A stretch of DNA of 61,482 nt. It comes from Candidatus Aenigmatarchaeota archaeon (lineage in GTDB: Archaea; Aenigmatarchaeota; Aenigmatarchaeia; CG10238-14; SCSR01). Location: NCBI GenBank assembly GCA_014238095.1, contig JABABT010000017.1, positions 1 through 61,482 of the forward strand, written 5' to 3'. The notes under the pieces were generated by a model. It was not told the origin of the DNA. It made no database searches and saw only the letters and a list, made by a program, of their open reading frames with translations. Shown here piece by piece: positions 7,716 to 61,219 of this stretch. The first letter of the stretch is position 1; every line of letters starts with the position of its first letter. A program made the position numbers and the translations under genes.

Positions 7716-7722
7716 TTATTAA

Positions 7723-8793: not shown

Positions 8794-9464
8794 ATACCAA
8801 AATTCCTTTTAATTTTACTAAAAAAAACAATTGCTTTTTTAAATTCTCTTTTATTAAATTCTGGAAATAATTTCTTTGATATGAATATTTCTGAATAAGA
8901 TGCATTCCATAACATAAAATTTGACAATCTTGAATATCCACCAGTTCTTATTATTAAATCTAATGGTTTATCTATTAACATATTTTTATCAATATTTTTC
9001 TTAATTAATTTCTTTTTTAATTTTATTAATTTATTAACAACATTAATTATTTCTTCTTTACTATCATAATCTAATAATAAATTTACTTTCATTCCATTAT
9101 TATTATTTGTTTTATTTTCAATTTTTTTCATTTGATTAAGTAAAGATTTTGAAAGTGATTTTCTATTACCAAAAAAATTTACTTTTATATTTTTATTTTC
9201 AAAATATTTTTCCTTTAATTCTTCTTTTAATATTCTTTCAAGTTGATTCAACATAAATATAATATCTGTTCTTTTTTTAAAATTTTCAGTTGAAATTAAA
9301 TATATTGAAACCATTCCTATATTATAATCTATACAAAAATTAATAAAATTTCTTACTTTTTTCCATCCATAATTTATTGTATATAATTTACTATATTTAT
9401 TTTTTTTTGTAAATCTTCTATTTCCGTCTGGAATTAATCCAATATGATATGGTATTTTACTCAT
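8790..9464 (-). CDS. uppS: cis-prenyltransferase (undecaprenyl/dolichyl diphosphate synthase family)
   Basis: 224 aa with the signatures 'HIGLIPDGNRRF' and 'IRTGGYSRLSNFMLWNASYSEIF'. Confidence 0.9.
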   Translation of the reverse strand: MSKIPYHIGLIPDGNRRFTKKNKYSKLYTINYGWKKVRNFINFCIDYNIGMVSIYLISTENFKKRTDIIFMLNQLERILKEELKEKYFENKNIKVNFFGNRKSLSKSLLNQMKKIENKTNNNNGMKVNLLLDYDSKEEIINVVNKLIKLKKKLIKKNIDKNMLIDKPLDLIIRTGGYSRLSNFMLWNASYSEIFISKKLFPEFNKREFKKAIVFFSKIKRNFGI

Positions 9465-9465
9465 T

Positions 9466-10224
9466 TTATTTAACCTTTATTAATTTTGCTTTAGTTAAAG
9501 GAATTAATTTACGATTAGAAATATAAAAACTGTTTTCTATTCTACAACCACCAATATTTTTTACATAAACTCCAGGTTCTATTGTAAATGCCATATTAGA
9601 AACAAAATATATTTTTTTTATTTTTTCCCATTTTTTTAAATTTTTTCCAGTTAAATTATTTCGAGGCATTCCTATTATTGGTCTTTCATGAATTCTTAAT
9701 CCTATACCATGTCCTAAACTATGTCCCATATATAATTTTTTAGATAATATTATATCATCAGTAAATTTATGTAAAATATAACATGGTAATCCATATTTCC
9801 ATTTCTTAATAATTTTATAATAAAGAGAATTAACAAAATCAACAATTTTCTTGGTTTTATTATTAACTTTTCCTTTTATGAAAGGTATAGTTAAATCTAC
9901 TTTATACCCTTTATAACTAGCTCCAAAATCAACATATCCTATACCATTAATTTTTTCAGAAGTAACTGTTGGTTTAGGATGTATCATAGAAGATCTAATA
10001 CCAGAAGCCACTAATGTTCTAAATGATAATTTTCCACCTTTTTTATATATATTTTCTTTAATTCTTTTTGAAATTTCTTTTTCTGTAATTCCTTCCTCTT
10101 TCAAAGATTTATGAATAATAGGTATACATGAATTAGATATTGATGCTGCTTTTTTCAACATTTTAATCTCATAAGATTTCTTAATAATTCCCATATATGA
10201 TCTCTCTTTTATTATAATTATCAA
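9466..10224 (-). CDS. M24 family metallopeptidase (Xaa-Pro peptidase-like catalytic domain)
   Basis: Metal-ligand pattern 'VDFGA', 'VDLT', 'GHSLGHGIGLRIHERP', 'IEPGVY', 'RIENS'. The track start at 10224 is TTG; the ATG at 10194 (MGIIKK...) is an alternative. Confidence 0.8.
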   Translation of the reverse strand: MIIIIKERSYMGIIKKSYEIKMLKKAASISNSCIPIIHKSLKEEGITEKEISKRIKENIYKKGGKLSFRTLVASGIRSSMIHPKPTVTSEKINGIGYVDFGASYKGYKVDLTIPFIKGKVNNKTKKIVDFVNSLYYKIIKKWKYGLPCYILHKFTDDIILSKKLYMGHSLGHGIGLRIHERPIIGMPRNNLTGKNLKKWEKIKKIYFVSNMAFTIEPGVYVKNIGGCRIENSFYISNRKLIPLTKAKLIKVK

Positions 10225-10301
10225 ATATTATATTTAAAATATTCTAATTTACAAAATAATTAATAAATTGTTTTAAATAATACTCATTACTAATTAAATA
10301 T

Positions 10302-12809: not shown

Positions 12810-12857
12810 ACTTAACAAATATTTACTATAACAACTAATTTATATATTATATTTATC

Positions 12858-12933
12858 GGGCTTGTAGCTCAGTTTGGATTAGAGCTACTCCGTCCTAAGG
12901 AGAAGGTCATGGGTTCGAATCCCATCAAGCCCT
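12858..12933 (+). tRNA. tRNA-Arg (anticodon CCT)
   Basis: Hand-folded cloverleaf: GGGCTTG/TA/GCTC-AGTTTGGATTA-GAGC/T/ACTCC-GTCCTAA-GGAGA/AGGTC/ATGGG-TTCGAAT-CCCAT/CAAGCCC/T. There is one A-A mismatch at 27:43 and no encoded CCA. It is a GC-rich island in AT-rich DNA. Confidence 0.85.
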
Positions 12934-12936
12934 CTT

Positions 12937-13674
12937 ATGTTAGAAACAATATTATTTGGAATAATACAAGGTATTTTTGAATGGATACCATTATCAAGTG
13001 AAGCTATAATTATTTTGAGTACTAGTATTATACAAATATCTTCATCTCCAATCGAAGCTGCCTTGATTTTACATTTTGGAACTATATTGTCGATTTTAGT
13101 TTATTTTAGAAAATATTGTATCAAAATAATAACATTAAAAGATAAAAAAATATTAAAATTTTTAACAATATCTACAATAATTTCTCTTTTAATTGGTTTT
13201 CCAATATTCCTTTTATTAAAAGATTTTACACTTGGTCCAAACTTATTGATTTTAATGGGAATTGCGCTTTTAGTAACAGGATATATACGTAAAAATAATA
13301 AGAACATACATATTAAGAGTAAATACCTTCCATTTATTTCTGGAATTCTTCAAGGTTTATCTATTATACCAGGATTATCAAGATCTAGTTCAACAATATT
13401 TGGTTTATCACTTGGAATGAAAGATCCAAAAAAAATTTTAACAATATCTTATATTATGTCTGTTCCTGTTGTTTTAGTATCTACAATTTACTTATCAATA
13501 AATAATTTATTATTATTCAAGAATTTCTTACCAGGTATAGGTATTGCTTTTATAATTGGATTAATTACTCTTCATATAATTTTTTCAATAATTAACAAAA
13601 TCGATTTTTTCAAATTCATAATTATTTTTGCAATTTTATCTTTTATAGGTGCTGGAATTACAATTATAATTTAA
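12937..13674 (+). CDS. uppP: undecaprenyl/dolichyl-diphosphate phosphatase (BacA/UppP family)
   Basis: 245 aa and polytopic. 'GIIQGIFEWIPLSSEA' and 'PGLSRSSSTIFG' correspond to the two UppP motifs. The ATG lies 4 nt after the tRNA-Arg 3' end. Confidence 0.85.
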   Translation: MLETILFGIIQGIFEWIPLSSEAIIILSTSIIQISSSPIEAALILHFGTILSILVYFRKYCIKIITLKDKKILKFLTISTIISLLIGFPIFLLLKDFTLGPNLLILMGIALLVTGYIRKNNKNIHIKSKYLPFISGILQGLSIIPGLSRSSSTIFGLSLGMKDPKKILTISYIMSVPVVLVSTIYLSINNLLLFKNFLPGIGIAFIIGLITLHIIFSIINKIDFFKFIIIFAILSFIGAGITIII

Positions 13675-13817
13675 TATTTTCTCCCCATCAGACACAAGGT
13701 TGAAATCATCTTATATCATTCCGCCCTTCAATCTTCATATGGTTTAGAGATAATTTTTAATAAAAATCATTATAACATAGTATTTTTATTAGAATTAACA
13801 ATAATTAAAGGTAGAAT

Positions 13818-16800
13818 ATGAATTCAAAACCAATAATTACATTTTTTTTATCATTCATTATATTAATATTAATATCTACATCAGTTAATGCTATAACTTC
13901 AAATAATAATAATTTTGAAATTACTTCTAGTAAAATTTATCTTAATTTTAGTAATAATTATAGTTCAAATTTAACAATAAAAACAATAACTTCTTCTGCT
14001 ATTGAAATAAAAATTAATAATTTTACAAATGAATCAAAAATAAGAAATATTTATGGTCAAATTAATAATGAAAATTTCTGTGGTTTTGGTGGTGGATTTG
14101 CTCCTATTATTAAAAATTATGTTAATAATGAATTTAATAATGAATTTATAATGAACGGTAATAATGAAACTATTGTAACATTTTTATTGACAAAAGAATA
14201 TTTAAATTGTTCACCAGGTAAATATTCTGGAAAAATAGAAATTCAAAATAATAATCTTGTATCTGATAATTTAGAAATATATATTGATGTTGAAATACCT
14301 ATTATAGTAGACAATATATTTTATAATTTTTCTGGTATTAGAAATTTTGGAGGTAATTTTTACCAAAATAATGAATCACATTCATATTTTTTTAATACAT
14401 CATTAATTGATAATAAATATTTAACAATTAATTTAGATTCTAATGAAAATATAGATATTTTTATTTTAGACAAGGATAAAAATTTAATATATTCATTTTT
14501 TAAAAATTTAATGGAAAAAAAAATTGTGAAAAATATTACAGATTTTTATGGACCTTATGAAATTCGAATATATGGAAATGTTTCATCAAATTATAATGGT
14601 ACATTATCATTATCAACATTAGATGTAATTGGTGAGGAAAAATTAATTAAAAATGATTTATCTCCATTATATTCAATATCTGAAAATATTGAAATAAAAA
14701 ATATTGGAAATATTACACAAAATAATTTAAAAGAATATTCAGAAATATTTAATATAAATATAACTGAAAATTTAAATGGTAACAATACTTTTGATTTATA
14801 CGTTCCTGATTATGCAAATAAAGTAGAAGTATTAGTTGAATGGGAAAAAGATGGAAATAAAACTTATATTTTAGAATTATTCAATTCTAATAATGAAATT
14901 ATTGGAAAATCTTTTGATAATCATTTAAATTCAAATAATTCAAATATTACCAATTTTACACAAATTATTGAAACAAATAATATAATTAACGGTTTATGGA
15001 AAATATATATAAATACACCAGATTTAAATCCAACAAATTTCATTTTAAAGAAAAAAATATTTTTTAATACAGATAATTGGATTTCAACTAATTTTACTCA
15101 AAGATCATTTAATGAAAATGAAAGTGAAATTATACAAATAAATTTAACTTTAATGGAAGCTTTATATGGAAATTATGAAGGTTTTTTAGGTTATGAAAGT
15201 TTTAATAATTCTGATATAATTATACCAATTAAATTTAATATAAATACAGGTACTATAATTTTAAATAATAAATTTAATTCATCTATTTTATTATTAAATG
15301 ATAATATTGGTAAAAATTTTGAAAGAGAAGTAAAAATACCTTTTAAAAATTTAGGAAATGAAATTTTAAATTATACAATAAAATCAAATAATATATTAAA
15401 ATTAGAAAATAGAAATGAATATATTAATTTTAGTTTAAATTCATTAAATGGAGTAATAAATCCATTTGAAGAAATTGAAATAGAATTAATTTTAAATGTA
15501 AATACTTTAAATACAAAAAATGAAAAAGGAATTTATAATAGTTTATTAGAAATTAATTTTACAGAATCTTATCCATATAAATTACATATATTAGAAATTC
15601 AATTAAATTTAACAGATAATATATTAATTAATTTTACTGAAATAATTTATAAAGATAATCAAAATTCAATATTAGATAATACAATAGAAAATTATGTTAC
15701 ATTAAATTTTGAATTAAAATATTATAATGGAACAACATATATTGAAGAAGAATATATTGGTATTGATGACTTTACATTAAAATTACAACATTCAAATATA
15801 ACAACTGAAAATATTAATATTATTTCTTCAAATATTAATAATATTTTATTTAATAATAATTTATATAAAATTAATTTAACTATTCCAAAAAATATTAAAG
15901 GTGGATATTATAATTTAGAATTAAATTTTGAAAATGATAAAATTTTATCTGGAAATAGAATTTATCAAAATCAAATTGAAAAAGAAATATTAAAAATAAA
16001 TAATTCTAGTATTTTATTATATTCTAATTTTTCATCATGTGAATATAATAATCCAAAATGTGATATATCATATGATTTAGGTTTAAATGAAAAACTTGAT
16101 GTTTATGCATTTGTTACAAATTATGGATTAATAAATTCTAATTTTCTAATTAGTTTTAATGAGAATAATTGTAATGGATATAGATTAAGAGAAAAAATAG
16201 AATCCAATTGTACAAGTAATAGTTTTAATTCTCCAATTTGGAATATAAATAATTTAGAACCTCAAAATACTTGTTATATATCATGGAGAATAGAATCAAT
16301 AACTAAATCTGATTCATGTTATTCAAATATAGATACTTTAAATAATATAATATTTTTTGAAAATGATTTAAAATTAAATATAAAAGTAATTAATTTTACT
16401 TCTTCTAATGATATACTTATTTCTGATAGTAATTCAATATCAAGTAGTCTAATATCAAGTAATCCAATATCAAATATAATAAAATATTTAGAAATTATTA
16501 ACTTACAACCTATAATTAAAATTAATAGTGGAAATGAAATTTTATCAAATTTTACAATAAAAAATCTTAATAATTCCATAATACAAAAAGTAAAAATAAA
16601 TATTTTATTTGGTAATGGTATTAATATATCAATTGTACCAAAAGAATATATAATAAATCCTCTATCTTCAAAAAATATTAATTTTAGAATATATATTGAT
16701 AATAATTTAGAATCTGGAATATATAATGGAAATATTATAGTAAATAGTTCATATCAAAAAATAAACTCTACATTAAAATTAGAAGTTTTTAATGATTATA

Positions 16801-17237
16801 ATAATGAAACAAATATTCAAAAATCTGTTAAAATTTTAACAAATAAAATATTAAATTTAGAAAATTCAACAAATAATTTAGTAAAAAATTTATTAAATAT
16901 AAAATTTAATAAATTCCAAATAATAGTTATAATTTTTATTCCTGTTTCTACAATATTATTATTTATATTAACCCCAATTGAAAAACTAAAAGAAATAAAA
17001 TATAAAATATATTCTATTTTTAATAAAAAATATATACGGAAAAATAAATTAGAATTTATTGAATATGGAAAATTTAATCATAAAATTAGTATAAATGAAA
17101 TTAAATATAAAATATTTCCAATTAAAAAGAAAATTTGTAAATTACATAAATTTAAAAAAAGAAAAAATAATTTAATTAAATATAAAATAAATTTTAAAAA
17201 TATTTTAAAATTTCATAAATATAAAAATAAAAAATAA
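13818..17237 (+). CDS. large Asn-rich secreted surface protein with C-terminal TM anchor and Lys-rich cytoplasmic tail
   Basis: 1139 aa. Sec-type signal 'FFLSFIILILISTSVNA', very many N-x-S/T sequons (e.g. NFSNNYSSNLT), and a TM 'FQIIVIIFIPVSTILLFILTPI' followed by an 85-aa basic tail. No family recognised. Confidence 0.7.
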   Translation: MNSKPIITFFLSFIILILISTSVNAITSNNNNFEITSSKIYLNFSNNYSSNLTIKTITSSAIEIKINNFTNESKIRNIYGQINNENFCGFGGGFAPIIKNYVNNEFNNEFIMNGNNETIVTFLLTKEYLNCSPGKYSGKIEIQNNNLVSDNLEIYIDVEIPIIVDNIFYNFSGIRNFGGNFYQNNESHSYFFNTSLIDNKYLTINLDSNENIDIFILDKDKNLIYSFFKNLMEKKIVKNITDFYGPYEIRIYGNVSSNYNGTLSLSTLDVIGEEKLIKNDLSPLYSISENIEIKNIGNITQNNLKEYSEIFNINITENLNGNNTFDLYVPDYANKVEVLVEWEKDGNKTYILELFNSNNEIIGKSFDNHLNSNNSNITNFTQIIETNNIINGLWKIYINTPDLNPTNFILKKKIFFNTDNWISTNFTQRSFNENESEIIQINLTLMEALYGNYEGFLGYESFNNSDIIIPIKFNINTGTIILNNKFNSSILLLNDNIGKNFEREVKIPFKNLGNEILNYTIKSNNILKLENRNEYINFSLNSLNGVINPFEEIEIELILNVNTLNTKNEKGIYNSLLEINFTESYPYKLHILEIQLNLTDNILINFTEIIYKDNQNSILDNTIENYVTLNFELKYYNGTTYIEEEYIGIDDFTLKLQHSNITTENINIISSNINNILFNNNLYKINLTIPKNIKGGYYNLELNFENDKILSGNRIYQNQIEKEILKINNSSILLYSNFSSCEYNNPKCDISYDLGLNEKLDVYAFVTNYGLINSNFLISFNENNCNGYRLREKIESNCTSNSFNSPIWNINNLEPQNTCYISWRIESITKSDSCYSNIDTLNNIIFFENDLKLNIKVINFTSSNDILISDSNSISSSLISSNPISNIIKYLEIINLQPIIKINSGNEILSNFTIKNLNNSIIQKVKINILFGNGINISIVPKEYIINPLSSKNINFRIYIDNNLESGIYNGNIIVNSSYQKINSTLKLEVFNDYNNETNIQKSVKILTNKILNLENSTNNLVKNLLNIKFNKFQIIVIIFIPVSTILLFILTPIEKLKEIKYKIYSIFNKKYIRKNKLEFIEYGKFNHKISINEIKYKIFPIKKKICKLHKFKKRKNNLIKYKINFKNILKFHKYKNKK

Positions 17238-20366: not shown

Positions 20367-21095
20367 TTAACAAGTAATTTCATATTTAAATTCATTTTCA
20401 CCAATATCTAATAATAATTTATAATTTTTACCTTCTTCTGAAATTTGATTTAATTTTACAAATACTGTATTGTTAGATTCAAGAATATTTATATTATCCC
20501 AATCTATTGATTTAACAACTTTATTATCAATTTTTACTTCTACATTCTCTAAAATTATGTTTTTTGTTCCATTATTCTTTATAATTAAATTATAAGTATT
20601 TCTAACAAAATCACATGAAACATCAATAATTTCTATACTTTCTACATCATTTATTGTTTTATTCTTATTATTTTCATTTGTATAATTTGAAATTTGTGTT
20701 GATGAATTATCAATTATTTTGGTATTATTATTTAAATTAAGTGATTCTTCTGCAAATATTAATGATATTGATGAATTTATAATTCTTTTTGTAATTTGTA
20801 TTAAATTTTTTGAAATATTTATTAATTTATTATATGAATTTGTTGAATTTGGAATATTTATGTAATTTATTGATTTATTTAAATCTCCATTTATTTGGAT
20901 ATTTATATTATCAATATTTTGTTCAATAATATCTATTCTATTTTTATTTTCTAATGGTAATTTTTCTAAATTTTTATCTTTAAGATTTTCAGTATAAATA
21001 GGTTTTAAAAATCCTGAAATACCAAAAAAAAATAATAATATAATTGAAATTATAGATAATGTAAATATTATTTTCCATAAATTACTTAATATCAT
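20367..21095 (-). CDS. hypothetical membrane-anchored protein with Cys-bracketed C-terminal beta domain
   Basis: 242 aa. N-terminal TM 'IIFTLSIISIILLFFFGISGF'. The C-terminal ~90 aa 'IEIIDVSC...DW...KYEITC' resembles the pilin at 60806. Confidence 0.55.
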   Translation of the reverse strand: MILSNLWKIIFTLSIISIILLFFFGISGFLKPIYTENLKDKNLEKLPLENKNRIDIIEQNIDNINIQINGDLNKSINYINIPNSTNSYNKLINISKNLIQITKRIINSSISLIFAEESLNLNNNTKIIDNSSTQISNYTNENNKNKTINDVESIEIIDVSCDFVRNTYNLIIKNNGTKNIILENVEVKIDNKVVKSIDWDNINILESNNTVFVKLNQISEEGKNYKLLLDIGENEFKYEITC

Positions 21096-21169
21096 ATTTT
21101 CACTAATATTTTATTGAATAAGAAGACTTTTATTCTTAACATTTCAAATAATTAGATATTTTAATTTAT

Positions 21170-21523
21170 TTAATTATTATGAGAAAATTCTGGTAAATCT
21201 ACATTTACATCAATTTGTAATTCATTTATAATATTAGAAATATCTTGATCTAATTCTGTTGTTTGTAATAGGATTTTTTGTTCATCTGTTAATTCATTTG
21301 GAATTTGTATATTTACTGATTCATTTTGTACAGATTCTGTTTCTAATTGTTCAACATTTATAGTTTCAATTTTTTCAATATTAGAACCTATTTTATTTAT
21401 AATATCTTCACCTAAAATTGAATTTACTATAGATGATCCTGGAAGATCAAATCCTTTATATAATAAAAATATGTAAACCAAAATTGCTATTATAATTATA
21501 ATTCCAAACATTAATTTACCCAT
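21170..21523 (-). CDS. hypothetical membrane-anchored acidic protein
   Basis: 117 aa. N-terminal TM 'FGIIIIIAILVYIFLLY' with an acidic extracellular part. It abuts the upstream gene (2-nt gap). Confidence 0.5.
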   Translation of the reverse strand: MGKLMFGIIIIIAILVYIFLLYKGFDLPGSSIVNSILGEDIINKIGSNIEKIETINVEQLETESVQNESVNIQIPNELTDEQKILLQTTELDQDISNIINELQIDVNVDLPEFSHNN

Positions 21524-21525
21524 AT

Positions 21526-22425
21526 TTATTGAACTCCTGTTTCATCTGTTTCATGTGTTTCATTTTCATTATTCTGACGTCTATCACGTAATTCAGATGT
21601 TCTATTAGATATTTTATCTTTTATTCTATTTATTATTGATCTTTCTATATTCTTTTTTGTTTTTTCTATTTCTGATTTTATTCTATCTTCAACACTAACA
21701 TCTTGTACTATTCCTCCTAAATTAACAAATGAGTATATTAATTCAGAAGTATTAGAATTATTAGAATTTCTAATATTTTCAATAATTTGTGTGATTTGGG
21801 TTCTATGATTTTCAATTGTATTATTATCTATTGTTTTATTTTTTAACATATTACATTTTTTAATTATTTCTTCTACTGTTTCATTTACATCAGATAATGT
21901 TCTATAAAAATTACATTCTTCTCTTATTTTATCATTTTTTGATTTATTAGATAAATAATTGAAAATTTTATTTACTCTATTATTCAAATGATTTTGGTCT
22001 ATAACTAAAATTCTAGTAGATTTTTTTATATTTGTACCATTTACAGAATCATTTAAAACAATACCAGCTTTTATAGGAATGATTGATCTATATGTTGAAT
22101 TAATTCCTAATAAATTAATAAATTCTTCACGTTGTGGTATATTACATGTAAATGAAAATTCTCCATTTAATGAAGTTTTTTGTTGATTTGAATCACAAAT
22201 TATTACTCTTTCAGAATTTTGTGTTGATTTAATTGTAATGAAGAAAATTCTATAATCAAATTCTCTATTAAAATCATTTTCTACAGTACCATTTAAAATA
22301 ATTTCATCTCCAAAATTAGCAATTTTATTATTTAATTCTAAATTAATTTCTATTTCAGCTGAAGTTGTATTTGATATTACAATAAATGTCATAATAAATA
22401 CTGAAAATAATATTAAATTTTTCAT
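21526..22425 (-). CDS. hypothetical secreted protein
   Basis: 299 aa. Signal peptide 'LILFSVFIMTFIVISNTTSA', a beta-rich N-terminal half, and a helical, charged C-terminal half. Confidence 0.55.
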   Translation of the reverse strand: MKNLILFSVFIMTFIVISNTTSAEIEINLELNNKIANFGDEIILNGTVENDFNREFDYRIFFITIKSTQNSERVIICDSNQQKTSLNGEFSFTCNIPQREEFINLLGINSTYRSIIPIKAGIVLNDSVNGTNIKKSTRILVIDQNHLNNRVNKIFNYLSNKSKNDKIREECNFYRTLSDVNETVEEIIKKCNMLKNKTIDNNTIENHRTQITQIIENIRNSNNSNTSELIYSFVNLGGIVQDVSVEDRIKSEIEKTKKNIERSIINRIKDKISNRTSELRDRRQNNENETHETDETGVQ

Positions 22426-30459: not shown

Positions 30460-31806
30460 TTAAAATGGTTGAGATAAATCTAGATTAAAAGTATAAATTT
30501 CAAATAAATCTCTATTAACAATATTTATATATGGAACAACAACTCCTTTCTTTTGACTAATTTGTATTGGATTAAAATTTGATGAAGTAAAAATTGAAGA
30601 AGCTATAAGTAACCTTTTATCATGAGTAAATGATTCTTCTAAAATTCCATTTTCTGAATTTTTTTCTATAAATTTTTCATGTATCCAAATTGCTGATGAT
30701 TTTCCAATTTTATTAAATGTAATATAAGAAATATTAAAACTACTTTCAGCAAATAAAAAATTGCTTGCAGTTGTTGTTCTAAAATTTAAATTAGATTGTA
30801 TATTAAAAGAATAACTATTATCTAAAATAGAAACAAACATTCTACCAGAAAGTTTATTTATTTCAACATAATTTAATAAAAATGATTTTCCATTTGTTCC
30901 TAATATAGTAAAATCATCTAATTCTTTTAATATAATATTAGGATTTGGATTTAATGGATCTGGATTTATATAAATACCATTATTACTTGAACAAGTCCAA
31001 AATTCTATATCATTCATCTCAATACTAAATGTACCTCTAGGAAATGGTTCATTTGGTGTATCTAAACAGTTTTCTATATTTGAATTTATAATTGGTGGTC
31101 TATTTGTATCATTTATTCTTGTTCTAACTTCTATTGGTATATTATAAAAATATTTATGAAATTTATATACTGGAGAGGTTATATCTGGTTGTAATATTAA
31201 GGATATTGGTGTGTTAACACTTCCTTCATCATACCATTCTATTCCAAATATTTTTTTTTTTTTTTTATCTAAATTAGAATTATCTGATATTAATATTACA
31301 CCATTACCTTCATTTATATAATCATTTAATGAATTTTCATAAATTTCTAAATTTAATGTTCTATCATCATCCCATATTAAAAGTACATCAGATTTTTGTA
31401 TTGAATCAAGTTCTGTTTTTATAAATGTAATTCTTATATCTCTTTCATTAATCTTAAATTCATTTATATATAATCTTAAATCTCCGACTAATTTATCAGT
31501 ACATTTACATGCAACAATTATTTCATTTTTTATAGATCCTTCTATATAAGATGAAACAATTAAATTATTTTCTAAATTTAATTTATTATATATAAAATCT
31601 TGTAATTCAACATTATTTCCTATAAATTGATTCATAAGTCCAATTTTATCTATTGTTATTAAAATATCTCTTGCATTTATTATCAAATTAGCTTCAGACC
31701 ATTTATTACCATAAACAGTTTCTGGGAAAAATAAACTAAAAGTTACGAATAATATTATAATTATAGTAATCATTTCAATTACTGGTATTTGTCCTTTTAT
31801 TGCCAT
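30460..31806 (-). CDS. large type IV pilin-like protein (class III signal peptide, KGQ type)
   Basis: 448 aa. The N-terminus 'MAIKGQIPVIEMITIIIILFVTFSLFF' is followed by a large unrecognised domain. The gene contains the A16 tract that encodes KKKKK. Confidence 0.65.
   Translation of the reverse strand: MAIKGQIPVIEMITIIIILFVTFSLFFPETVYGNKWSEANLIINARDILITIDKIGLMNQFIGNNVELQDFIYNKLNLENNLIVSSYIEGSIKNEIIVACKCTDKLVGDLRLYINEFKINERDIRITFIKTELDSIQKSDVLLIWDDDRTLNLEIYENSLNDYINEGNGVILISDNSNLDKKKKKIFGIEWYDEGSVNTPISLILQPDITSPVYKFHKYFYNIPIEVRTRINDTNRPPIINSNIENCLDTPNEPFPRGTFSIEMNDIEFWTCSSNNGIYINPDPLNPNPNIILKELDDFTILGTNGKSFLLNYVEINKLSGRMFVSILDNSYSFNIQSNLNFRTTTASNFLFAESSFNISYITFNKIGKSSAIWIHEKFIEKNSENGILEESFTHDKRLLIASSIFTSSNFNPIQISQKKGVVVPYINIVNRDLFEIYTFNLDLSQPF
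31251..31266. repeat. 16-nt homopolymer (A16 on the coding strand) inside the pilin-like gene
   Basis: Counted: T at 31251-31266. On the minus strand it reads GAT-A16-TATTTGG, which encodes D-KKKKK-IFG. Confidence 0.9.
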
Positions 31807-32366
31807 ACTTGTAATTTCAACTCCCCATAATTTCCATTATCAAATGTTACAATTCTATCAATAGATACTACAAAACTAGAAACTATAGGTCTACCTATTG
31901 TTGTGTCTATATTTTTTGGATGACAATTATTTAATAATATTTCATTATTCAATTTATCTGTTATTATAATTGAAAAATCCAAATTTGTTCCTATTTTTTC
32001 AGTTACTTTTTCATATCCTATACCACCTAATGTTGTATCACATAATTCCATTAATCTATTTATTTTATTTAATGATAAATAATTTCTTTCATTAAGAAAA
32101 TAATTTGTCTTTGTTGCTTGTATATTAGACAAACCAATTCTTTGAATATATTCTGAATCTAATTTAAAAAAATTCCAATTTTCTGGATATCCGGGATCAT
32201 TAATTAAAATTTCAGAAATTTGATATGCTTTTGAACGAATTTCTTGTTCTTCAATTTGTCCTATAAATTTAGGAACTATATTTGTTATTTCAAATAAGAA
32301 ATAAATTACAAAAAAAATGAAAATTACTATAGCTATAATATAATCTATAGATATTTGACCTTTCAT
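31797..32366 (-). CDS. type IV pilin-like protein (KGQ class III signal peptide)
   Basis: 189 aa. 'MKGQISIDYIIAIVIFIFFVIYFLF' has a Q-x-S-x-D start like DUF361/Epd-type pilins. It overlaps the next gene by 10 nt. Confidence 0.7.
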   Translation of the reverse strand: MKGQISIDYIIAIVIFIFFVIYFLFEITNIVPKFIGQIEEQEIRSKAYQISEILINDPGYPENWNFFKLDSEYIQRIGLSNIQATKTNYFLNERNYLSLNKINRLMELCDTTLGGIGYEKVTEKIGTNLDFSIIITDKLNNEILLNNCHPKNIDTTIGRPIVSSFVVSIDRIVTFDNGNYGELKLQVWQ

Positions 32367-32367
32367 T

Positions 32368-33429
32368 TTAAATTCCCAAGAAACCTAATTGAATCAATAT
32401 AAGGAATGCTCCTATAGTTATTCCTGCTAATATTATACTATGTTTTAGTCCTGCTTTTACATTACCTTCACTCATTTGACCAGCAACTAATCCAGAAAAT
32501 ATAGATTGTATCAAAGACATCATAAAGAATAATGATGTATAATAAACTGAGATATTTCGTAATGTTTCTGTTTCATTCTTAAGTTTACAAATATTCTCAA
32601 CTTGATTACTTGGGGCTAATAAACATTTATATATCGTATTATAAATCCAACAAACATTTTCTTCAAAACCAAAAGGATTATTACATGGATTATCTAATTG
32701 TATTAAATTTGAAAGACCTGCTTCAGAATCCTGTCCTGATTGAAATACAGGTAATAAAAATTTATTTATTGCAGCAACTATTACAATAAATATTATAGAT
32801 ATAGCATACATAAGTAAAACATATTGACTTAATAATGCTTTTTTCTCTTTATTTATTTCTTGTAAATTATTTACATTTTCTGCTACTGATTCAAGAGTTG
32901 ATGTTACTTCTCCTCCAGATATAAAAGACTCTTTAATTATTTTTATTGAAGTTGATAATCTCTTACTTTCTTTCATTCTATTTGCAAATCTTGTAAGAAC
33001 TTTATCAAGTGGAATACCCCAACTTAATTGATTTGACATTTTATTTATTTCAGGTGAAAGTGCTCCATAATTATTTTTTGATGTAATTGCAAGTGCTTGA
33101 TGAAATGGAACACCAGATCTAATTGATTCTGTTAAATCATATAATAAATTTGGGAATTTTTCTTCCATTTCTTGAATATTTCTAAATTTCTTATAAACTG
33201 ATAATACAATAGGAATTATATTTATAAAAACAGTCATAATTATTAATATTCCTAAAGCTCCATGGTTACCTGTAATAAAACCGAGAAAAATAAATAATAT
33301 AGAAAATGATAATGTAATTAGAAGAATATGTTTCAGATTTGAAAAATCTGGGAATTTTTTTTTCTTAGATTTATTTTCATTTTTATTTTTCATTATTTTG
33401 GGTTTTTGGTTTTTATTTTTTCCTAACAA
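32368..33429 (-). CDS. type II secretion system F-domain platform protein (TadC-like)
   Basis: 353 aa. Lys-rich N-terminus, then a TM pair, a helical cytoplasmic domain ('LLYDLTESIRSGVPFHQAL', 'GGEVTSTLESVAE') and further TMs. A ~65-aa loop carries 4 Cys. Confidence 0.7.
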   Translation of the reverse strand: MLGKNKNQKPKIMKNKNENKSKKKKFPDFSNLKHILLITLSFSILFIFLGFITGNHGALGILIIMTVFINIIPIVLSVYKKFRNIQEMEEKFPNLLYDLTESIRSGVPFHQALAITSKNNYGALSPEINKMSNQLSWGIPLDKVLTRFANRMKESKRLSTSIKIIKESFISGGEVTSTLESVAENVNNLQEINKEKKALLSQYVLLMYAISIIFIVIVAAINKFLLPVFQSGQDSEAGLSNLIQLDNPCNNPFGFEENVCWIYNTIYKCLLAPSNQVENICKLKNETETLRNISVYYTSLFFMMSLIQSIFSGLVAGQMSEGNVKAGLKHSIILAGITIGAFLILIQLGFLGI

Positions 33430-33430
33430 T

Positions 33431-34300
33431 TTATTCCTCTCCTGGTGTTGATGATTTAATTAAATAAATAAACATAATTGAAATTAATGGCATAAATAAG
33501 AAAATTAATATGAATTGTAGAATAATAATATCTTCACCACCACCACCTATTGCAGAAATTATTGCTGTTAATATTGTGAAAAAAATAGCACCAAGTATTA
33601 TAGCTGTTAAATAAATTTCTATAAAAAGTGTAAGTGTATTTGAAAATTCATGAAGTTTTCTTTTATATTCGTTCATAAAATTTATAGATTTTTGTTTTAG
33701 GTAAATATTCATATCACCACCGGCTCTTATTGTAGATAATAATCCATACAAAAGTTCTGAAAAATTTTTACTCGGTGATCTTTCTACTGCACGTTCAAGA
33801 GCAGTTATTATATCAAGTCCAAAAAGTTTTGTATCATTATTTATATTATTAATTTGTTTTTTTATTTCTCCATATGATGAAAATTTTGTGAATATATTTA
33901 GAGTTTTGAATAAAGGTAATTTTGAACTTGATATTGTAGCAAGATATAATAATGCAAATGGTAATGAATTATTTAAATTACTTTCTTTTGATTTAATTAT
34001 AGATAATGGATATTTTATCATACCAAAAAATAAACCAACTGATGCTACTAAACCAGATAAAATTGCAAAAAGAATTGAAAATAAAATATCCTTAACTAAA
34101 ATTGTAAATAATAAAGAAAATACTGGAATAAATAAAATTAATGCAATTAATGAAATAAGCATAGACATACTTAAATATTCTTGAGTAGTATAAGGCATAT
34201 CTGATTTTTTTAATATTTTTTTTAAATCAGGAAAAAAAATCATAAAATGTTTTGTATATTCTCTAAATATCCTAAAAGCAAAATTCTGAAAACTAGACAT
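33431..34300 (-). CDS. type II secretion system F-domain platform protein (TadB-like)
   Basis: 289 aa and polytopic. The cytoplasmic helical domain 'LLYGLLSTIRAGGDMNIYL' is flanked by TM helices. Confidence 0.7.
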   Translation of the reverse strand: MSSFQNFAFRIFREYTKHFMIFFPDLKKILKKSDMPYTTQEYLSMSMLISLIALILFIPVFSLLFTILVKDILFSILFAILSGLVASVGLFFGMIKYPLSIIKSKESNLNNSLPFALLYLATISSSKLPLFKTLNIFTKFSSYGEIKKQINNINNDTKLFGLDIITALERAVERSPSKNFSELLYGLLSTIRAGGDMNIYLKQKSINFMNEYKRKLHEFSNTLTLFIEIYLTAIILGAIFFTILTAIISAIGGGGEDIIILQFILIFLFMPLISIMFIYLIKSSTPGEE

Positions 34301-36214
34301 TTAAGTATCTCCATATATAATTGACAAAATTTTATTTGGAAAATTATAATACATATTTATTATTTTATATACCTGATCATAATCTTTAATTCCTCTTTGA
34401 TGTAACCATTTTAGAATTGTTATCCTTCTTTTTAACTCTTCAAGTATTTCCTTTTTACCCATTCCTGTTAATCTTGTAATCTTTTTTAATAAAATAGATT
34501 TCTTAACTGTTTCTATATAATCCTTCTCAGAATTCCATTTGAAAACTGTATTTACATTTGGTCTTGATTTATTTGGTTGGAATGTTATCATTTCAACAAT
34601 TGCAGTTGATCTTCTAACAAATTTATTACGATATTTTACACGTGTTAAAAATACAATAAGATCTAAACTTCCTACTAAACTTTTTGGTAAAGAAATTGGG
34701 GCTGTTGTTAATCTATTTACAAGTTTTTCTATATTATCTGCGTGTATTGTTGCATAAGATGGATGACCAGTAGCCATTTGTTGGAATAGAACAGCTGCCT
34801 CTTTACCTCTTACTTCTCCTACAATAATATAATCTGGTCTTTGTCTTAAACTTTCTTTTAGAAGTGCAAACATATCAACTTGACCTCCTTCAACATTTAT
34901 ATCAGATGTTGTTGTTCTAGCAACAGTTGGTACCCAATGTGGATGGGGTAATCTTAATTCTCCTGTATCTTCAATTGATATTATTTTTTTATCTGGTCTT
35001 ATAAAAATTGATATAGCATTCAAAAAACTTGTTTTTCCAGATGCTGTTCCACCAGAAACAAGAATACTTCTTCCATAATCTATAGCCATCCAAATATAAG
35101 CCATTGATTTTATATCAAGTGTACCATATTCAATTAAATGAATTGGTGTCATTGATTCTTTAGTGAATTTTCTAATAGTAAAATTACTTCCTTTCCTTGC
35201 AATATCTGTTGCTAATGTTGCTTGTAATCTACTCCCATCTCTAAGTATTCCATCAAGTAATGGACGTGCAACTGATATTGATTTTCCAGAAAGTTGAGCC
35301 AATTTAGTAATAAAAGAGTCGAGTTCTTCATCTGTATCAAATTTTACATTAGTCATTATTGATCCTATTTTTGGATTTCTATGAAATATAAAAATTGGAA
35401 TACCAAGACCATCACAACTAATATCTTCTATTTGATTATCATGCATTAAAGGTTCTATTTTACCAAGACCCATAAAATCTCTTTCTATGAAATATTGTAA
35501 AATATTTTTTTCATTTTCATTTATATTGAATTTATAATAATTAATTAATTTCTCTATTTCAACCCTTAAATAATTTGATGCTTCAGAAACTTTTAATTTA
35601 GAAAAATCTACATCTAATTTTTCTTCTAAAAGTTCTTTTATTTTACCTAATGTTTTTTTAATATTTTCTGTCATTTTTGGCTCTATAACAGAATAAATAT
35701 ATCTATTTTGTTTGTCATTCCAATATATTTTAACATAAGAAAAAATTTTTTCGTCTTTTTTAGGTCTTTCAGGAATAAGAGGATAAATTATTGGTTTCAT
35801 TTTAGCTGAATCTGGACTAAATTCTGGCATATGAGATTCACTATTAATTTTAGGAATTTCATAACCCATTCCACTCATATCTTCAAAAATCTCATCCTCT
35901 TCTTCAATTGGTTTTGATTGATTATTTATAATATTAAAATTTTGTTGTGGAAGTGATTGGTTGGATATTCCTGTGTTTCCAGATATTATTGGTCTTGATG
36001 TTTGTGTATTTTGTAATTGTTGAGGTAATGTATTATTAATATTTAATGGTATTGTAACTGGTTTTATTACTGGTTTAATTATTATAGGAATTTTTCCCTC
36101 ACTTGTTTCTATTTCTGTTCTTTGTTCTTGTTGTTGCTCATTAAATAAATTATTTATATTTTTTGATTGGTATCCTTTTACCATTTTTTTAAATATTTTT
36201 TTACTTAATTTCAT
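34301..36214 (-). CDS. type II/IV secretion (FlaI/PilB/TadA/VirB11-family) ATPase with low-complexity N-terminal extension
   Basis: 637 aa. Walker A 'SGGTASGKTSFLNAI', 'IISIEDTGELRL', Walker B 'PDYIIVGEVRGKEA', His box 'MATGHPSYATIHA'. The first ~150 aa are Q/N/P/I-rich. Confidence 0.88.
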   Translation of the reverse strand: MKLSKKIFKKMVKGYQSKNINNLFNEQQQEQRTEIETSEGKIPIIIKPVIKPVTIPLNINNTLPQQLQNTQTSRPIISGNTGISNQSLPQQNFNIINNQSKPIEEEDEIFEDMSGMGYEIPKINSESHMPEFSPDSAKMKPIIYPLIPERPKKDEKIFSYVKIYWNDKQNRYIYSVIEPKMTENIKKTLGKIKELLEEKLDVDFSKLKVSEASNYLRVEIEKLINYYKFNINENEKNILQYFIERDFMGLGKIEPLMHDNQIEDISCDGLGIPIFIFHRNPKIGSIMTNVKFDTDEELDSFITKLAQLSGKSISVARPLLDGILRDGSRLQATLATDIARKGSNFTIRKFTKESMTPIHLIEYGTLDIKSMAYIWMAIDYGRSILVSGGTASGKTSFLNAISIFIRPDKKIISIEDTGELRLPHPHWVPTVARTTTSDINVEGGQVDMFALLKESLRQRPDYIIVGEVRGKEAAVLFQQMATGHPSYATIHADNIEKLVNRLTTAPISLPKSLVGSLDLIVFLTRVKYRNKFVRRSTAIVEMITFQPNKSRPNVNTVFKWNSEKDYIETVKKSILLKKITRLTGMGKKEILEELKRRITILKWLHQRGIKDYDQVYKIINMYYNFPNKILSIIYGDT

Positions 36215-36642
36215 TGTGAAACCTTTAATAAATTATTATTATTATTATAAGTTAATATTATTGGTTTATCTGAAATTACTGTACCTACTACTGTATTTCC
36301 TCTAAATAATTTATGATTTTCTGAAGAAGAATTAATTTTTGTTGGAAAAGTTGTTGTTGTTATTTTTTTATTTTTGAAATATAGTTGATTTAATGAATTT
36401 TTTGATGTATCTCTTAAATGTGTCAATATAATTATTTCATCACATCCATTACAACTTACGAATGAATTTACAGAAATTGCTGATATATAATTATTAATAA
36501 CTTTTCTATTTTCATTATTTAAATCTAAAGAAAATAAATCTAATCTATCACTAAATGTTCCGGATATAAGTATGAAAACTGCAAACCCTATAATGAAAAA
36601 TAATATAAATTGAATTATATGAGCTTGTCCTTTAATTATCAT
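36211..36642 (-). CDS. type IV pilin-like protein (KGQ class III signal peptide)
   Basis: 143 aa starting 'MIIKGQAHIIQFILFFIIGFAVFILI'. It overlaps the ATPase start by 4 nt. Confidence 0.7.
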   Translation of the reverse strand: MIIKGQAHIIQFILFFIIGFAVFILISGTFSDRLDLFSLDLNNENRKVINNYISAISVNSFVSCNGCDEIIILTHLRDTSKNSLNQLYFKNKKITTTTFPTKINSSSENHKLFRGNTVVGTVISDKPIILTYNNNNNLLKVSQ

Positions 36643-36695
36643 TGAAACTAAATAAATTTACATTTTTGAATTTAAATTTTTATTATTTTTTAAAT

Positions 36696-37355
36696 TTAAA
36701 TTAATAGAACTGTAATATCAGTAATAATTAATGTTTTAGAGTTAATTTGAGTTGTATTCCTTTTACTAAATTGTAATCTAATATTGTTATTATTTCCTCC
36801 AACAGATTCTAATCCAGCAGTATGTTTTTTTAAATCTATTCTAAATCCATTTTTTTTCTCAACATCTTCAAGTTCTCTTATATAAAGTTTATATGTAATA
36901 TCATAATAATCTGATGATGATGTAAATGTTTCTATACAAATAACACCTAATTCATCTAAACCAAGTATACCAGATTCAATTTTATTTGTATTTGGATTAA
37001 TTTGACATGAATCTCCAGTTAAAGAAACTATTCCTTGTGCATTACTAGCTACTCTACTTAATGTGTTGAAACTTATAGAATTTTCTGTTTCATTTAAAGT
37101 TAATACTCCTTCAGCATCAATTTTTATTGTATCCTGACCTCCATTATTTGCAATTAATTTTATTTTAGATGGAATTGAATTAATATTCGAGTTATCAAAT
37201 AATGCTTTTGTTCTATCATCAATTGCTCTATCTTGATTTTTCTGAATTAATGGTAAACCAAAATTTAATGCAACTGATAAAAGACCTATAGCAATAAGAA
37301 CAATTAATATGGATGCAATAATTTCAGACTGTCCTTTCATTATCATTTTAATCAA
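36696..37355 (-). CDS. type IV pilin-like protein (KGQ class III signal peptide)
   Basis: 219 aa starting 'MIKMIMKGQSEIIASILIVLIAIGLL'. The track start at 37355 is TTG; internal ATGs lie just downstream. Confidence 0.7.
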   Translation of the reverse strand: MIKMIMKGQSEIIASILIVLIAIGLLSVALNFGLPLIQKNQDRAIDDRTKALFDNSNINSIPSKIKLIANNGGQDTIKIDAEGVLTLNETENSISFNTLSRVASNAQGIVSLTGDSCQINPNTNKIESGILGLDELGVICIETFTSSSDYYDITYKLYIRELEDVEKKNGFRIDLKKHTAGLESVGGNNNNIRLQFSKRNTTQINSKTLIITDITVLLI

Positions 37356-37528
37356 ATACTATTTGGAGGAAATAAAGGTCTTCGTTGTCTCATCATTCCA
37401 GGTTTTGGAAATGGTTTCTTTATTTTCTTGTTCATATCTTCAATTGAATCAGTTAATTCTTTATTACTTTCTGCAATTTTCTTATTACTCTCAAGAATTT
37501 CTGTCATTTTTCCAATCATACTTTTCAT
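37352..37528 (-). CDS. small coiled-coil/basic protein (58 aa), below ORF-track cutoff
   Basis: My translation is MKSMIGKMTEILESNKKIAESNKELTDSIEDMNKKIKKPFPKPGMMRQRRPLFPPNSI. It fills the gap between two operon genes, and its stop overlaps the pilin start. Confidence 0.45.
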   Translation of the reverse strand: MKSMIGKMTEILESNKKIAESNKELTDSIEDMNKKIKKPFPKPGMMRQRRPLFPPNSI

Positions 37529-37537
37529 TTCTTCATT

Positions 37538-37870
37538 TTATTCATGTGAAGATTCTGGTTCAGTTGCTGATGATTTTATATAAGATATTAATTCATCTAA
37601 TTTACTAATCATATCCTCTAACCTAGAAGGTAATCTTGAAAGTTCAATTCTAAGTGCATCATTAGCTTTTGCAAGTTCATCTACAAGTTGTTGATTCATT
37701 CTAATAATTTCAACTAATTCATGATAAAAATCTTTAGAATCAAAATTAGAACGAGTACCTTCTATTGATTCTAATCTTTTCTCTATTTTTCTTAATGGAG
37801 AAATAGGAATCAATTCATATTCATGGTCATCGTTATTTTGTTCATTTTTATATTTTTTCATAGGAGTCAT
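37538..37870 (-). CDS. hypothetical coiled-coil protein, first gene of the pilus operon
   Basis: 110 aa with a heptad-like helical region 'LVEIIRMNQQLVDELAKANDALRIELSRLPSRLEDMISKLDELI'. No family recognised. Confidence 0.55.
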   Translation of the reverse strand: MTPMKKYKNEQNNDDHEYELIPISPLRKIEKRLESIEGTRSNFDSKDFYHELVEIIRMNQQLVDELAKANDALRIELSRLPSRLEDMISKLDELISYIKSSATEPESSHE

Positions 37871-37905
37871 TAAGTTAATTTGTGAATTATAATAAATAAA
37901 TGTTT

Positions 37906-37950
37906 ATTTTTTATAGACTTTGTCTAAAAAATGACTTTTGTCTAAAAAAT
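37906..37950 (-). promoter_or_regulatory. putative pilus-operon promoter: TATAAAAAAT box preceded by a tandem 17/18-bp direct repeat
   Basis: The plus strand has GACTTTGTCTAAAAAAT (37916-37932) followed at once by GACTTTTGTCTAAAAAAT (37933-37950). The minus strand has TATAAAAAAT at 37915-37906, about 36 nt before the ATG at 37870. Confidence 0.45.
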
Positions 37951-38162
37951 CGAGTTTTTTTTAGTAAAATAATAAAACCAAAAATAATACTATAATAGAT
38001 TTTTATAGAATATATATTATAATTAAAAATAAAAAATAATGGGAAAAATCAATAAATATTATTTAGAAATTAAACCGAAATAAAAAATTTAATGAAAATT
38101 GAAATTAATTAAAAATACAAATAAATTTCTTTTTAATAAGTTAGATAATTTTTAGAATTTTA

Positions 38163-60805: not shown

Positions 60806-61219
60806 ATGTCAAAAGGAGTATCAACAATAATAGCTACTTTATTGATGTTAGTAATAACAGTAGCTTTAGCAGGTACAGCATTTGGATACATTCAAGGAAT
60901 ATTTTCTACACAAGTAGAAGGTAATATTCAAATTGCTGATGTTACATGTAACTCAGATAAAGATATTAGAATAATAGTAAGAAATCTTGATCCAGTAAAT
61001 ACTGTTGACGCAAGTGATTTTATTGTTTCTATTGATGGTGTCTTACAAGATCCAGTAGATTGGAATAGAACACTTTCAACTACAGAAAATACTACAGTAC
61101 TAGATGCTGCTGGTAGAATAACAGGAACAATATATTCAACAGGATATGAAGGAACACAACAATTAAGACTTGTTGGTGGCGGAAATGCTGGAGCACTTGA
61201 AGCTTTAGTAACATGTTAA
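60806..61219 (+). CDS. archaeal type IV pilin (class III signal peptide, Pilin_N type)
   Basis: 137 aa starting 'MSKGVSTIIATLLMLVITVALAGTAFGY'. It is G/A/T/V-rich and visibly less AT-rich than its neighbours. Cys residues occur near the domain start and as the last residue. A TTTATATAG box lies about 25 nt upstream of the ATG. Confidence 0.8.
   Translation: MSKGVSTIIATLLMLVITVALAGTAFGYIQGIFSTQVEGNIQIADVTCNSDKDIRIIVRNLDPVNTVDASDFIVSIDGVLQDPVDWNRTLSTTENTTVLDAAGRITGTIYSTGYEGTQQLRLVGGGNAGALEALVTC

Follow-up and report, generated by a model that had tools for sequence, protein, structure and literature searches.

What kind of surface machine is encoded by a closely packed set of minus-strand genes in an aenigmatarchaeal contig, and does the set encode the whole of it? 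The genes lie between positions 37870 and 30460 of a stretch of 61,482 nt from Candidatus Aenigmatarchaeota archaeon (assembly GCA_014238095.1, contig JABABT010000017.1), called the window below. They encode a coiled-coil protein (CCP), a secretion ATPase, two membrane platform proteins and four prepilin-like proteins with a Lys-Gly-Gln (KGQ) site. The original prediction, made from the sequence alone, described nine genes of a self-contained pilus with Epd-type pilins. Our analysis indicates that the genes likely form an operon for the assembly of an archaeal type IV pilus of Clade 2 (AfGspE/PilB3-like), in a form conserved across cluster-2 DPANN archaea.

Assembly ATPase, split platform and related loci

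The assembly ATPase has 637 amino acids (aa). It matched T2SSE (PF00437) with 107 bits at a cutoff of 24.9, and PilB3_C with 28.9 bits. The Walker A, Asp box, Walker B and His box motifs were intact and invariant in a 12-sequence alignment, which confirms the secretion ATPase with all four boxes that had been predicted. The N-terminus forms a low-complexity extension of approximately 150 aa. In the PDB search, the ATPase scored 375 bits with AfGspE (2OAP), 266 bits with FlaI of S. acidocaldarius and 154 bits with CpaF. AfGspE (AF0659, 2OAP) belongs to Clade 2, arCOG01817, in the supplement of Makarova et al. 2016 (PMC4858521). A total of 7931 homologues were found at E ≤ 1e-20. The best were 59–62% identical, and the named ones were metagenome-assembled genomes of Candidatus Aenigmatarchaeota. 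Judged by best-hit similarity and not by phylogeny, the locus would be a Clade 2-type pilus and not a Clade 1 (Epd) pilus.

Five homologue neighbourhoods showed the same gene order, namely CCP, ~218 aa, ~143 aa, ATPase, 289 aa, ~345 aa, ~173 aa and ~445 aa, and each operon protein of the window had an orthologue in the same position. Their flanks include thermosome and aCPSF1/proteasome genes. A scan of one genome per GTDB species returned nothing with the single ATPase as the query, and 80 further loci with the 12-sequence ATPase alignment. These were mostly from Aenigmatarchaeota, some were labelled Nanoarchaeota or Nanohaloarchaeota, and the complete genome of Ca. Nanosalina sp. VS9-1 was among them. 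The counts given below refer to 87 related loci, the window segment not counted, and were obtained with family hidden Markov models (HMMs) built from the first loci. The comparison across related DPANN genomes, suggested along with the original prediction, showed that the operon order is kept in Aenigmatarchaeota, Nanoarchaeota and Nanohaloarchaeota. In 40 of the 87 loci, L075 and L078 of Nanohaloarchaeota among them, the operon lies next to the thermosome gene.

The operon matches Locus 1 of cluster-2 DPANN archaea by gene content and order, not by direct sequence comparison with Ca. Nanohaloarchaeum antarcticus, and this kind of locus has thus already been described. In the description by Hamm et al. 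2024 (PMC11291902), Locus 1 is reported for Aenigmarchaeota, Nanoarchaeota, Nanohaloarchaeota and others, and it contains a CCP, FlaF/PilA-like proteins, a CpaF-type ATPase and TadC, with an adjoining chaperonin gene. According to the same paper, proteomics of Ca. Nanohaloarchaeum antarcticus revealed several proteins of the conserved loci, coiled-coil proteins among them. The window likewise has a CCP, pilin-like genes, a CpaF/FlaI-type ATPase, a TadC-type platform and an adjoining thermosome gene. It differs in that the CCP gene is interrupted and the PilA-type gene lies outside the operon. Four class III proteins and their links to DUF families are not resolved in the accessible part of the published description. 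Tad-like TadA/TadB/TadC clusters in which "no pilins were annotated" were reported from Nanohaloarchaeota and Undinarchaeota (PMC9563170), and DPANN pilus loci have been treated as "dark matter" (PMC6393860).

Euryarchaeal Clade 2 pili (AfGspE; Hfx. volcanii PilB3/PilB4-type; Makarova, Koonin & Albers 2016, PMC4858521) resemble the locus in several components. The window ATPase is nearest to AfGspE and its C-terminus matches PilB3_C. Clade 2 pili have a PilA-family major pilin, whose gene is often a stand-alone one, and many of their loci contain two tadC genes. Clade 2 and haloarchaeal loci also encode a class III accessory pilin set, and three of its members appear to have DPANN homologues. 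Two haloarchaeal loci were inspected, and they differ from the window in a fused platform of 679–701 aa, a much longer ATPase and the order of the accessory pilin genes. No haloarchaeal counterpart of the 448-aa protein or of the CCP was detected.

The platform is encoded by two separate polytopic proteins, as predicted, each with one T2SSF domain (cutoff 25.2 bits; scores in Table 1). The 353 aa of the C-terminal half are counted from a TTG codon, and an ATG at 33393 is the likelier start. The N-terminal half covered positions 7–249 of 555 on an ArlJ model, and the C-terminal half covered ArlJ positions 182–384 of 465 and UpsF positions 269–437 of 484. On a fused haloarchaeal platform of 679 aa, the family HMM of the N-terminal half matched residues 21–323 with 121.7 bits, and that of the C-terminal half matched residues 426–607 and 632–678. 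The two halves are paralogues (26% identity, E 5e-5), and PDB sequence searches with them gave no match. The N-terminal half (~289 aa) was found in 82 of the 87 loci and the C-terminal half in 80. Because about 80 related genomes share the split, it is real, and a frameshift or assembly artefact was ruled out as its cause. Two cysteines of the C-terminal half, C249 and C260, lie in a predicted extracytoplasmic loop and are conserved in 71/75 and 74/75 orthologues, respectively.

The likening of this platform to that of bacterial Tad systems is sound with regard to two single-T2SSF genes, conserved in about 80 genomes. The arrangement itself was already known for Epd, Tad, Clade 2 and DPANN loci. 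For Epd-like and Tad systems, Denise et al. 2019 described a pair of single-T2SSF genes and argued for gene fission (PMC6668835). Makarova et al. 2016 reported two tadC genes in Clade 1 and many Clade 2 loci (PMC4858521), and split platforms have also been described for DPANN loci (PMC9563170, PMC11291902). In bacterial Tad/Flp (type IVc) loci, two adjacent single-T2SSF genes lie directly downstream of the ATPase gene, and the arrangement is analogous to that of the window. CpaF is a detectable homologue of the window ATPase (154 bits), and archaeal ATPases are much closer. The Flp pilin, TadZ/CpaE, the RcpA secretin, TadV and TadE/F/G of bacterial Tad systems, none of which was matched by the operon proteins in Pfam or NCBIfam, set those systems apart. 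According to one proposal, the Tad system arose from an archaeal one in which the platform is split (PMC6668835).

The platform halves were also compared with the Tad locus of a Salipiger plasmid (L090). In this single comparison the scores were weak, at 17.9 and 35.8 bits. Of the two Tad T2SSF genes, the first was the better match for the N-terminal half and the second for the C-terminal half, by weak margins in one low-power comparison. This mapping appears opposite to that of Denise et al. 2019, in which TadC corresponds to the N-terminal half and TadB to the C-terminal half (PMC6668835).

Table 1. Positions and supporting matches of the operon ORFs, the upstream region and the stand-alone pilin gene (ORF, open reading frame; a slash marks the predicted cleavage site).
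Feature	Position	Strand	Evidence
ORF1, CCP N-terminal part, 110 aa	37538..37870	-	conserved EYELIPxSPLRxLEKR motif and first coiled coil
ORF2, CCP C-terminal part, 58 aa	37352..37528	-	in frame with ORF1
219-aa KGQ protein, DUF7289-related, predicted minor/accessory pilin	36696..37355	-	N-terminus MIMKGQSEIIASILIV
143-aa KGQ protein, DUF7266-related, predicted minor pilin	36211..36642	-	N-terminus MIIKGQAHIIQFILFF
Assembly ATPase, 637 aa, AfGspE/PilB3-like Clade 2 type	34301..36214	-	T2SSE and PilB3_C matches
Platform N-terminal half, 289 aa, one T2SSF	33431..34300	-	PF00482, 53.4 bits
Platform C-terminal half, 353 aa, one T2SSF	32368..33429	-	PF00482, 56.7 bits
189-aa KGQ protein, Q-x-S-x-D start, DUF7287-related, predicted minor pilin	31797..32366	-	N-terminus MKGQISIDYIIAIVIF
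448-aa KGQ protein, candidate tip/adhesin subunit, family unannotated	30460..31806	-	N-terminus MAIKGQIPVIEMITIII
Stand-alone PilA-type pilin, 137 aa, MSKG/VSTIIATLLMLVITVALAG	60806..61219	+	TIGR02537 pass
Intergenic region upstream of the operon, operon to thermosome gene	37871..38162	-	AT-rich TATA-like sequence and 14-nt direct repeat

KGQ proteins and prepilin processing

Four operon products begin with M-x(0-5)-KGQ followed by a hydrophobic helix, and all four N-termini had been recognised in the original prediction. The whole window was scanned in six frames for class III N-termini, defined as [KR][GA]-X with a hydrophobic stretch of at least 16 residues near the N-terminus. Only five such N-termini were found, those of the four KGQ proteins and of the ORF at 60806. 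The KGQ tripeptide occurs 6 times in the 122,960 six-frame codons of the window. Because the tripeptide is so rare and class III N-termini are restricted to five ORFs, the KGQ pattern is real and far beyond chance.

Three of the four proteins could be linked to uncharacterised Pfam families through their orthologues. The length of the 219-aa protein is counted from a TTG codon, and an ATG at 37346 or 37340 is the likelier start. Its orthologues are 46–48% identical, the family has 70 ORFs across the 87 loci, and 15 of 40 members matched DUF7289 in the orthologue Pfam scan (best E 4e-9). The family of the 143-aa protein has 47 ORFs, 40 of them with a [KR][GAS]Q site, and 10 of 40 members matched DUF7266 (best E 5.9e-7). 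The family of the 189-aa protein has 59 ORFs, and 11 of 40 orthologues matched DUF7287; the window copy itself scored 25.9 bits at a cutoff of 27, and the window copies of the other families had no match. The statement that five of the nine proteins have no recognisable family thus goes too far for these three, whose orthologues match although the window copies fall short of the thresholds. No papers on the DUF numbers of the pilin-like families were located in the literature.

A homologous pilus operon was found on the Halobaculum halophilum plasmid NZ_CP058531.1 (L088, locus coordinates 4457-14312). Its order is Pilin_N, hypothetical, ATPase, fused platform, DUF7287, DUF7288, DUF7261-like, DUF7266 and DUF7289. 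DUF7287 directly follows the platform gene both there and in the window, and DUF7289 is the last gene of the haloarchaeal operon. Since the same DUF families share this one operon, three DPANN KGQ proteins appear to be divergent members of the haloarchaeal-type accessory (minor) pilin set. Two accessory proteins of the plasmid operon bear RAQ sites, so a +1 Gln is not confined to lineages that have EppA.

The 448-aa protein is the last gene product of the operon. Its orthologues, at the identical operon position, are 31–35% identical, and its family has 42 ORFs across the 87 loci. A word-indexed search returned 5 relatives with a single query and 8 with a 31-sequence profile, and an exhaustive profile search returned 517 representatives at the 50%-identity cluster level (E ≤ 1e-3). 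Pfam scans of the members and a profile-versus-sequence search of the PDB gave nothing meaningful. The hhalign comparisons with the haloarchaeal DUF7288 and DUF7261-like proteins were not significant. The AlphaFold2 model from a 10-sequence input had a pLDDT (predicted local distance difference test) of 59.6, and that from a 5-sequence input had a pLDDT of 45 and was unusable. The former model shows an N-terminal helix, an alpha/beta domain at ~83–190 and beta-rich parts. Foldseek found no PDB match for it at E ≤ 0.001. Flavodoxin-like, ThuA-like and CheY-like folds were considered for the alpha/beta domain on weak Foldseek matches only, and no fold is claimed. A distal or adhesive subunit would fit the size of the protein, its last-gene position, and its C-x-C-T and other conserved cysteines.

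Conserved cysteines were also observed in predicted extracytoplasmic parts of two KGQ proteins, as C100-x-C102-T103 in the 448-aa protein and as C109 and C148 in the 189-aa protein. Together with those of the C-terminal platform half, they suggest disulfides or metal binding.

No prepilin peptidase was found in the 61-kb window by family, transmembrane (TM) and motif scans, in agreement with the earlier statement that none is encoded in the locus. The polytopic candidates were only BacA, a Na/Ca exchanger and the two platform halves. A GxGD-type motif was found neither in the window nor within ~8 kb of the ATPase gene in the 87 loci. The 9-TM EppA was not found in the locus, the window or the related loci. 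As the window holds no candidate, the peptidase would have to be encoded elsewhere.

The KGQ sites raise the question of whether the locus is a self-contained Epd-type pilus, with the four KGQ proteins as its filament subunits and a dedicated EppA-like peptidase that needs Gln at +1. The Epd pilins of Methanococcus maripaludis have KGQV, KGQL and KGQI sites of the same form, and EppA requires the +1 Gln that FlaK rejects (PMC4371748), so that the KGQ/EppA pairing that the original prediction gave for methanogens was right for this species. The Epd system also has two platform proteins, EpdJ and EpdK (PMC4371748, PMC6668835), and the 189-aa protein has a Q-x-S-x-D start. In M. maripaludis the locus includes several minor pilins, the major pilin is encoded elsewhere, as proposed here, and the role is adhesive. 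Gln occupies +1 in 40/47 members of the 143-aa family, and in many of the 219-aa (48/70) and 189-aa (at least 42/59) families.

Against this stands the ATPase, which is nearest to AfGspE of Clade 2 and not to the fast-evolving Clade 1. EppA, with 9 TM segments, has been reported only from Clade 1 organisms, namely methanococci, methanobacteria and thermococci (PMC4858521), and it has no counterpart in or near this locus. No operon protein matched PF04021 (DUF361) at E ≤ 1. The Epd major pilin has ~70 aa and DUF361, and the six-frame scan found no comparable small class III ORF of at least 40 aa in the window. The +1 residue is V, I, F or A (KG[VIFA]) in the other orthologues of the KGQ proteins, and only 9/42 members of the 448-aa family have Gln. 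The RAQ sites of the homologous haloarchaeal accessory proteins and the PilA-type pilins with KG/[IV] in the same operon of ~30 relatives also speak against it. Dependence on EppA is unsupported because the +1 Gln varies among orthologues, and caution is needed since a +1 Gln alone is insufficient to infer such dependence; PibD enzymes are reported to be tolerant at +1 (PMC4371748). We consider an Epd-type pilus unlikely, and the prediction of pilins processed by EppA was not upheld.

A PilA-type pilin encoded outside the operon

The fifth class III N-terminus belongs to a stand-alone gene on the plus strand, ~23 kb from the operon. The protein passed TIGR02537, the archaellin/type IV pilin N-terminal model, with 35.7 bits at a cutoff of 20. 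Its N-terminus is UpsA-like, and it scored 24.8 bits with Pilin_N against a cutoff of 25.2. Some 30 related loci carry homologues of this pilin gene a short way upstream of the ATPase gene, on the same strand as the operon. Three loci were checked (L031, L023 and L033), and there the PilA-type gene lies between the CCP and 219-aa genes or immediately upstream of the pilin-like ones. L033 (E 7.7e-16) and L031 (E 2.5e-12) gave the best matches. Archaeal major pilins are typically encoded by stand-alone genes (Makarova et al. 2016, PMC4858521). The protein is probably the major pilin of this machine, supplied in trans. Because PilA-type homologues lie inside the operon in relatives, the operon can be described as an assembly machine with minor pilins whose shaft pilin is supplied in trans. 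The machine would thus not be self-contained, contrary to the original prediction.

The gene is preceded by a TATA-like box and followed by an oligo-T tract. Its GC content is 32.6%, compared with 23.1% for the window, and that of the thermosome gene is similar. These features would lend weak support to high expression.

Without a PilA-type gene in the operon, the four minor-pilin-like genes might be taken to form a short pseudopilus, for secretion or DNA uptake as in type II secretion or competence systems, and not a long adhesive pilus. Pilus-mediated DNA uptake has been proposed for DPANN archaea (PMC9563170), and Hamm et al. 2024 liken CCPs to attachment proteins (PMC11291902). The CCP has no signal peptide, so unconventional export would be needed if it were extracellular. 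However, the PilA-type gene is part of the same operon in ~30 relatives and is kept here at 60806, and Pilin_N genes are present in the homologous haloarchaeal loci. Moreover, the operon encodes no nuclease, DNA-binding or ComEC-like protein recognised by Pfam or NCBIfam. We regard a pseudopilus as quite unlikely.

A reduced archaellum locus for motility can be dismissed as highly improbable: the top NCBIfam models are FlaI for the ATPase (405 bits) and ArlJ for the platform halves (82 and 44 bits), and JGI labels many ATPase homologues "flagellar protein FlaI", but the FlaI match misses the cutoff of 550, the ArlJ matches fall well short of cutoffs of 400–570, the operon proteins matched no archaellin, ArlF/G, ArlH or ArlC/D/E/X family in Pfam or NCBIfam, and none of the 87 related loci has archaellum genes in the operon. 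The earlier statement that ArlF/G/H/C-E are absent was borne out, and ArlF/G/H/B, which had been named beforehand as neighbours that would mark an archaellum, are not in the locus either.

A gene at 183-887 (minus strand) encodes a single-domain KaiC-like ATPase (PF06745, 163 bits). It was set aside as an ArlH-like partner, being 30 kb away and scoring 51 bits on the ArlH model against a cutoff of 215. A regulatory role in archaeal type IV pili has been proposed for ATPases of the KaiC family.

The first gene and the proposed machine

The operon is made up of nine co-oriented ORFs. Along them, the spacings are +9, -4, +53, -4, 0, +1, +1 and -10 nt, and the largest gap agrees with the maximum of ~55 nt given previously. 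ORF1 and ORF2 are separated by an in-frame TAA (37540-37538) and three codons. In the alignment they are collinear, end to end, with single-ORF orthologues of 140–260 aa. ORF1 is 71–79% identical to residues 2–111 of single orthologues of 174–177 aa, and ORF2 is 48–64% identical to residues 116–177 of the same orthologues. The CCP gene was detected in 52 of the 87 other loci, and it is one uninterrupted ORF in all 52. Since ORF1 and ORF2 are one gene, the operon, judged from these alignments, is composed of eight gene families and not of nine genes; the nine packed ORFs of the original prediction were seen correctly, and its gene count was one too high.

The TAA falls in a variable linker flanked by two conserved helical segments, and the start Met of ORF2 is conserved in several CCP orthologues. 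TAA is the commonest stop in the window, ending 43 of 56 ORFs. Recoding at this codon is unlikely because TAA is a normal stop here, and stop-codon reassignment was ruled out on the same count. What interrupts the gene is either a recent nonsense mutation, leaving a tolerated fission or a pseudogene, or else an error of sequencing. The CCP parts contain no TM segment and matched no Pfam or NCBIfam family. The CCP is predicted to be a cytoplasmic coiled-coil protein and appears to be the counterpart of the CCP of the DPANN pilus loci of Hamm et al. 2024.

A perfect 14-nt direct repeat TTTGTCTAAAAAAT occurs upstream of the operon at 37919-37932 and 37937-37950, with a spacing of 18 nt, ~50–80 nt upstream of the first start codon. 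Such a repeat might bind a regulator, or it might be due to chance in AT-rich DNA. AT-rich motifs are expected by chance upstream of the operon at 23% GC. Among the five neighbourhoods of the closest ATPase homologues, three (L001-L003, locus coordinates ~4344-5289) have a NUDIX gene and a ~152-aa gene separating the thermosome gene from the operon. Of these two genes, L004 has just the NUDIX one there, L007 has neither, and the window has neither at 37871-38162.

The window as a whole carries archaeal housekeeping genes, such as those for the thermosome, aCPSF1, the proteasome and aminoacyl-tRNA synthetases. The plus-strand gene at 13818-17237, in the lowest-GC stretch of the window (~16%), encodes a protein of 1139 aa that has a signal-like segment at its N-terminus and a TM segment at its C-terminus. 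The protein had no Pfam match and could be a large surface protein. At 20367-22425 on the minus strand, three genes in a row encode proteins of 242, 117 and 299 aa that are N-terminally anchored and resemble no recognisable family.

We propose the following mechanism for a Clade 2-type pilus assembled by this operon. In the class III signal proteins, a peptidase encoded elsewhere would cut off the short leader, M-x(0-5)-KG. The 637-aa ATPase, as a hexamer, would dock on a membrane platform of two polypeptides that correspond to the N- and C-terminal halves of a fused ArlJ/PilC-type protein. The four KGQ proteins would act as minor pilins that prime assembly and cap the filament, the 448-aa protein likely being the distal adhesive subunit. 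The PilA-type pilin encoded at 60806-61219 would polymerise in trans into the filament shaft. The cytoplasmic CCP would be a conserved accessory or regulatory component, cut into two ORFs here by the nonsense codon. Gene content, homology, synteny, the split platform, the signal motifs and the cis linkage of PilA-type genes in relatives are direct results of the analysis. From them we infer the division into minor and major pilins, the placing of the 448-aa protein at the tip, and a function in adhesion or host contact; such a function appears plausible and has been put forward in the DPANN literature.

Several points weigh against this proposal. The class assignment is, as stated, one of best hits. 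None of the four window KGQ proteins reaches the threshold of a curated family or pilin model in Pfam or NCBIfam. A pilin fold of these proteins is unsupported, the lone model, that of the 448-aa protein, having a pLDDT of 59.6 and no significant match. Prepilin processing is assumed, since no peptidase was found. The role of the 60806 protein as the major pilin rests on synteny in relatives and family membership and not on expression or structure. Its site is KG/V (KG/VS), whereas that of the operon proteins is KG/Q, and the two kinds of site could belong to different systems if two stringent peptidases exist as in M. maripaludis. Finally, the pilus system may be impaired in this genome by the interruption of the CCP gene.

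Two further readings are improbable. In one, the DPANN Clade 2 form, which combines a Clade 2 ATPase, a collinear platform fission and prepilins rich in +1 Gln and is widespread in DPANN archaea, would be an evolutionary intermediate for the origin of Epd and Tad systems. In the other, the CCP, which lacks a signal peptide, would be a cargo or attachment factor displayed for host contact. If the CCP were displayed in this way, the break in its gene would point to a lineage whose interaction with the host is shifting.

The analysis does not reveal a new kind of machine. Its additions are the interrupted CCP and the count of eight genes, the links of the pilin-like proteins to DUF families, the evidence against EppA and an Epd-type system, and the PilA-type pilin encoded in trans. 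Contact with host cells is something that DPANN archaea rely on, and the leading candidates for establishing it are type IV pili. For the unannotated genes of such DPANN loci, the findings propose roles as four class III accessory pilins, among them a candidate tip family with ~500 representatives, and as a PilA shaft pilin that may be encoded in cis or in trans.

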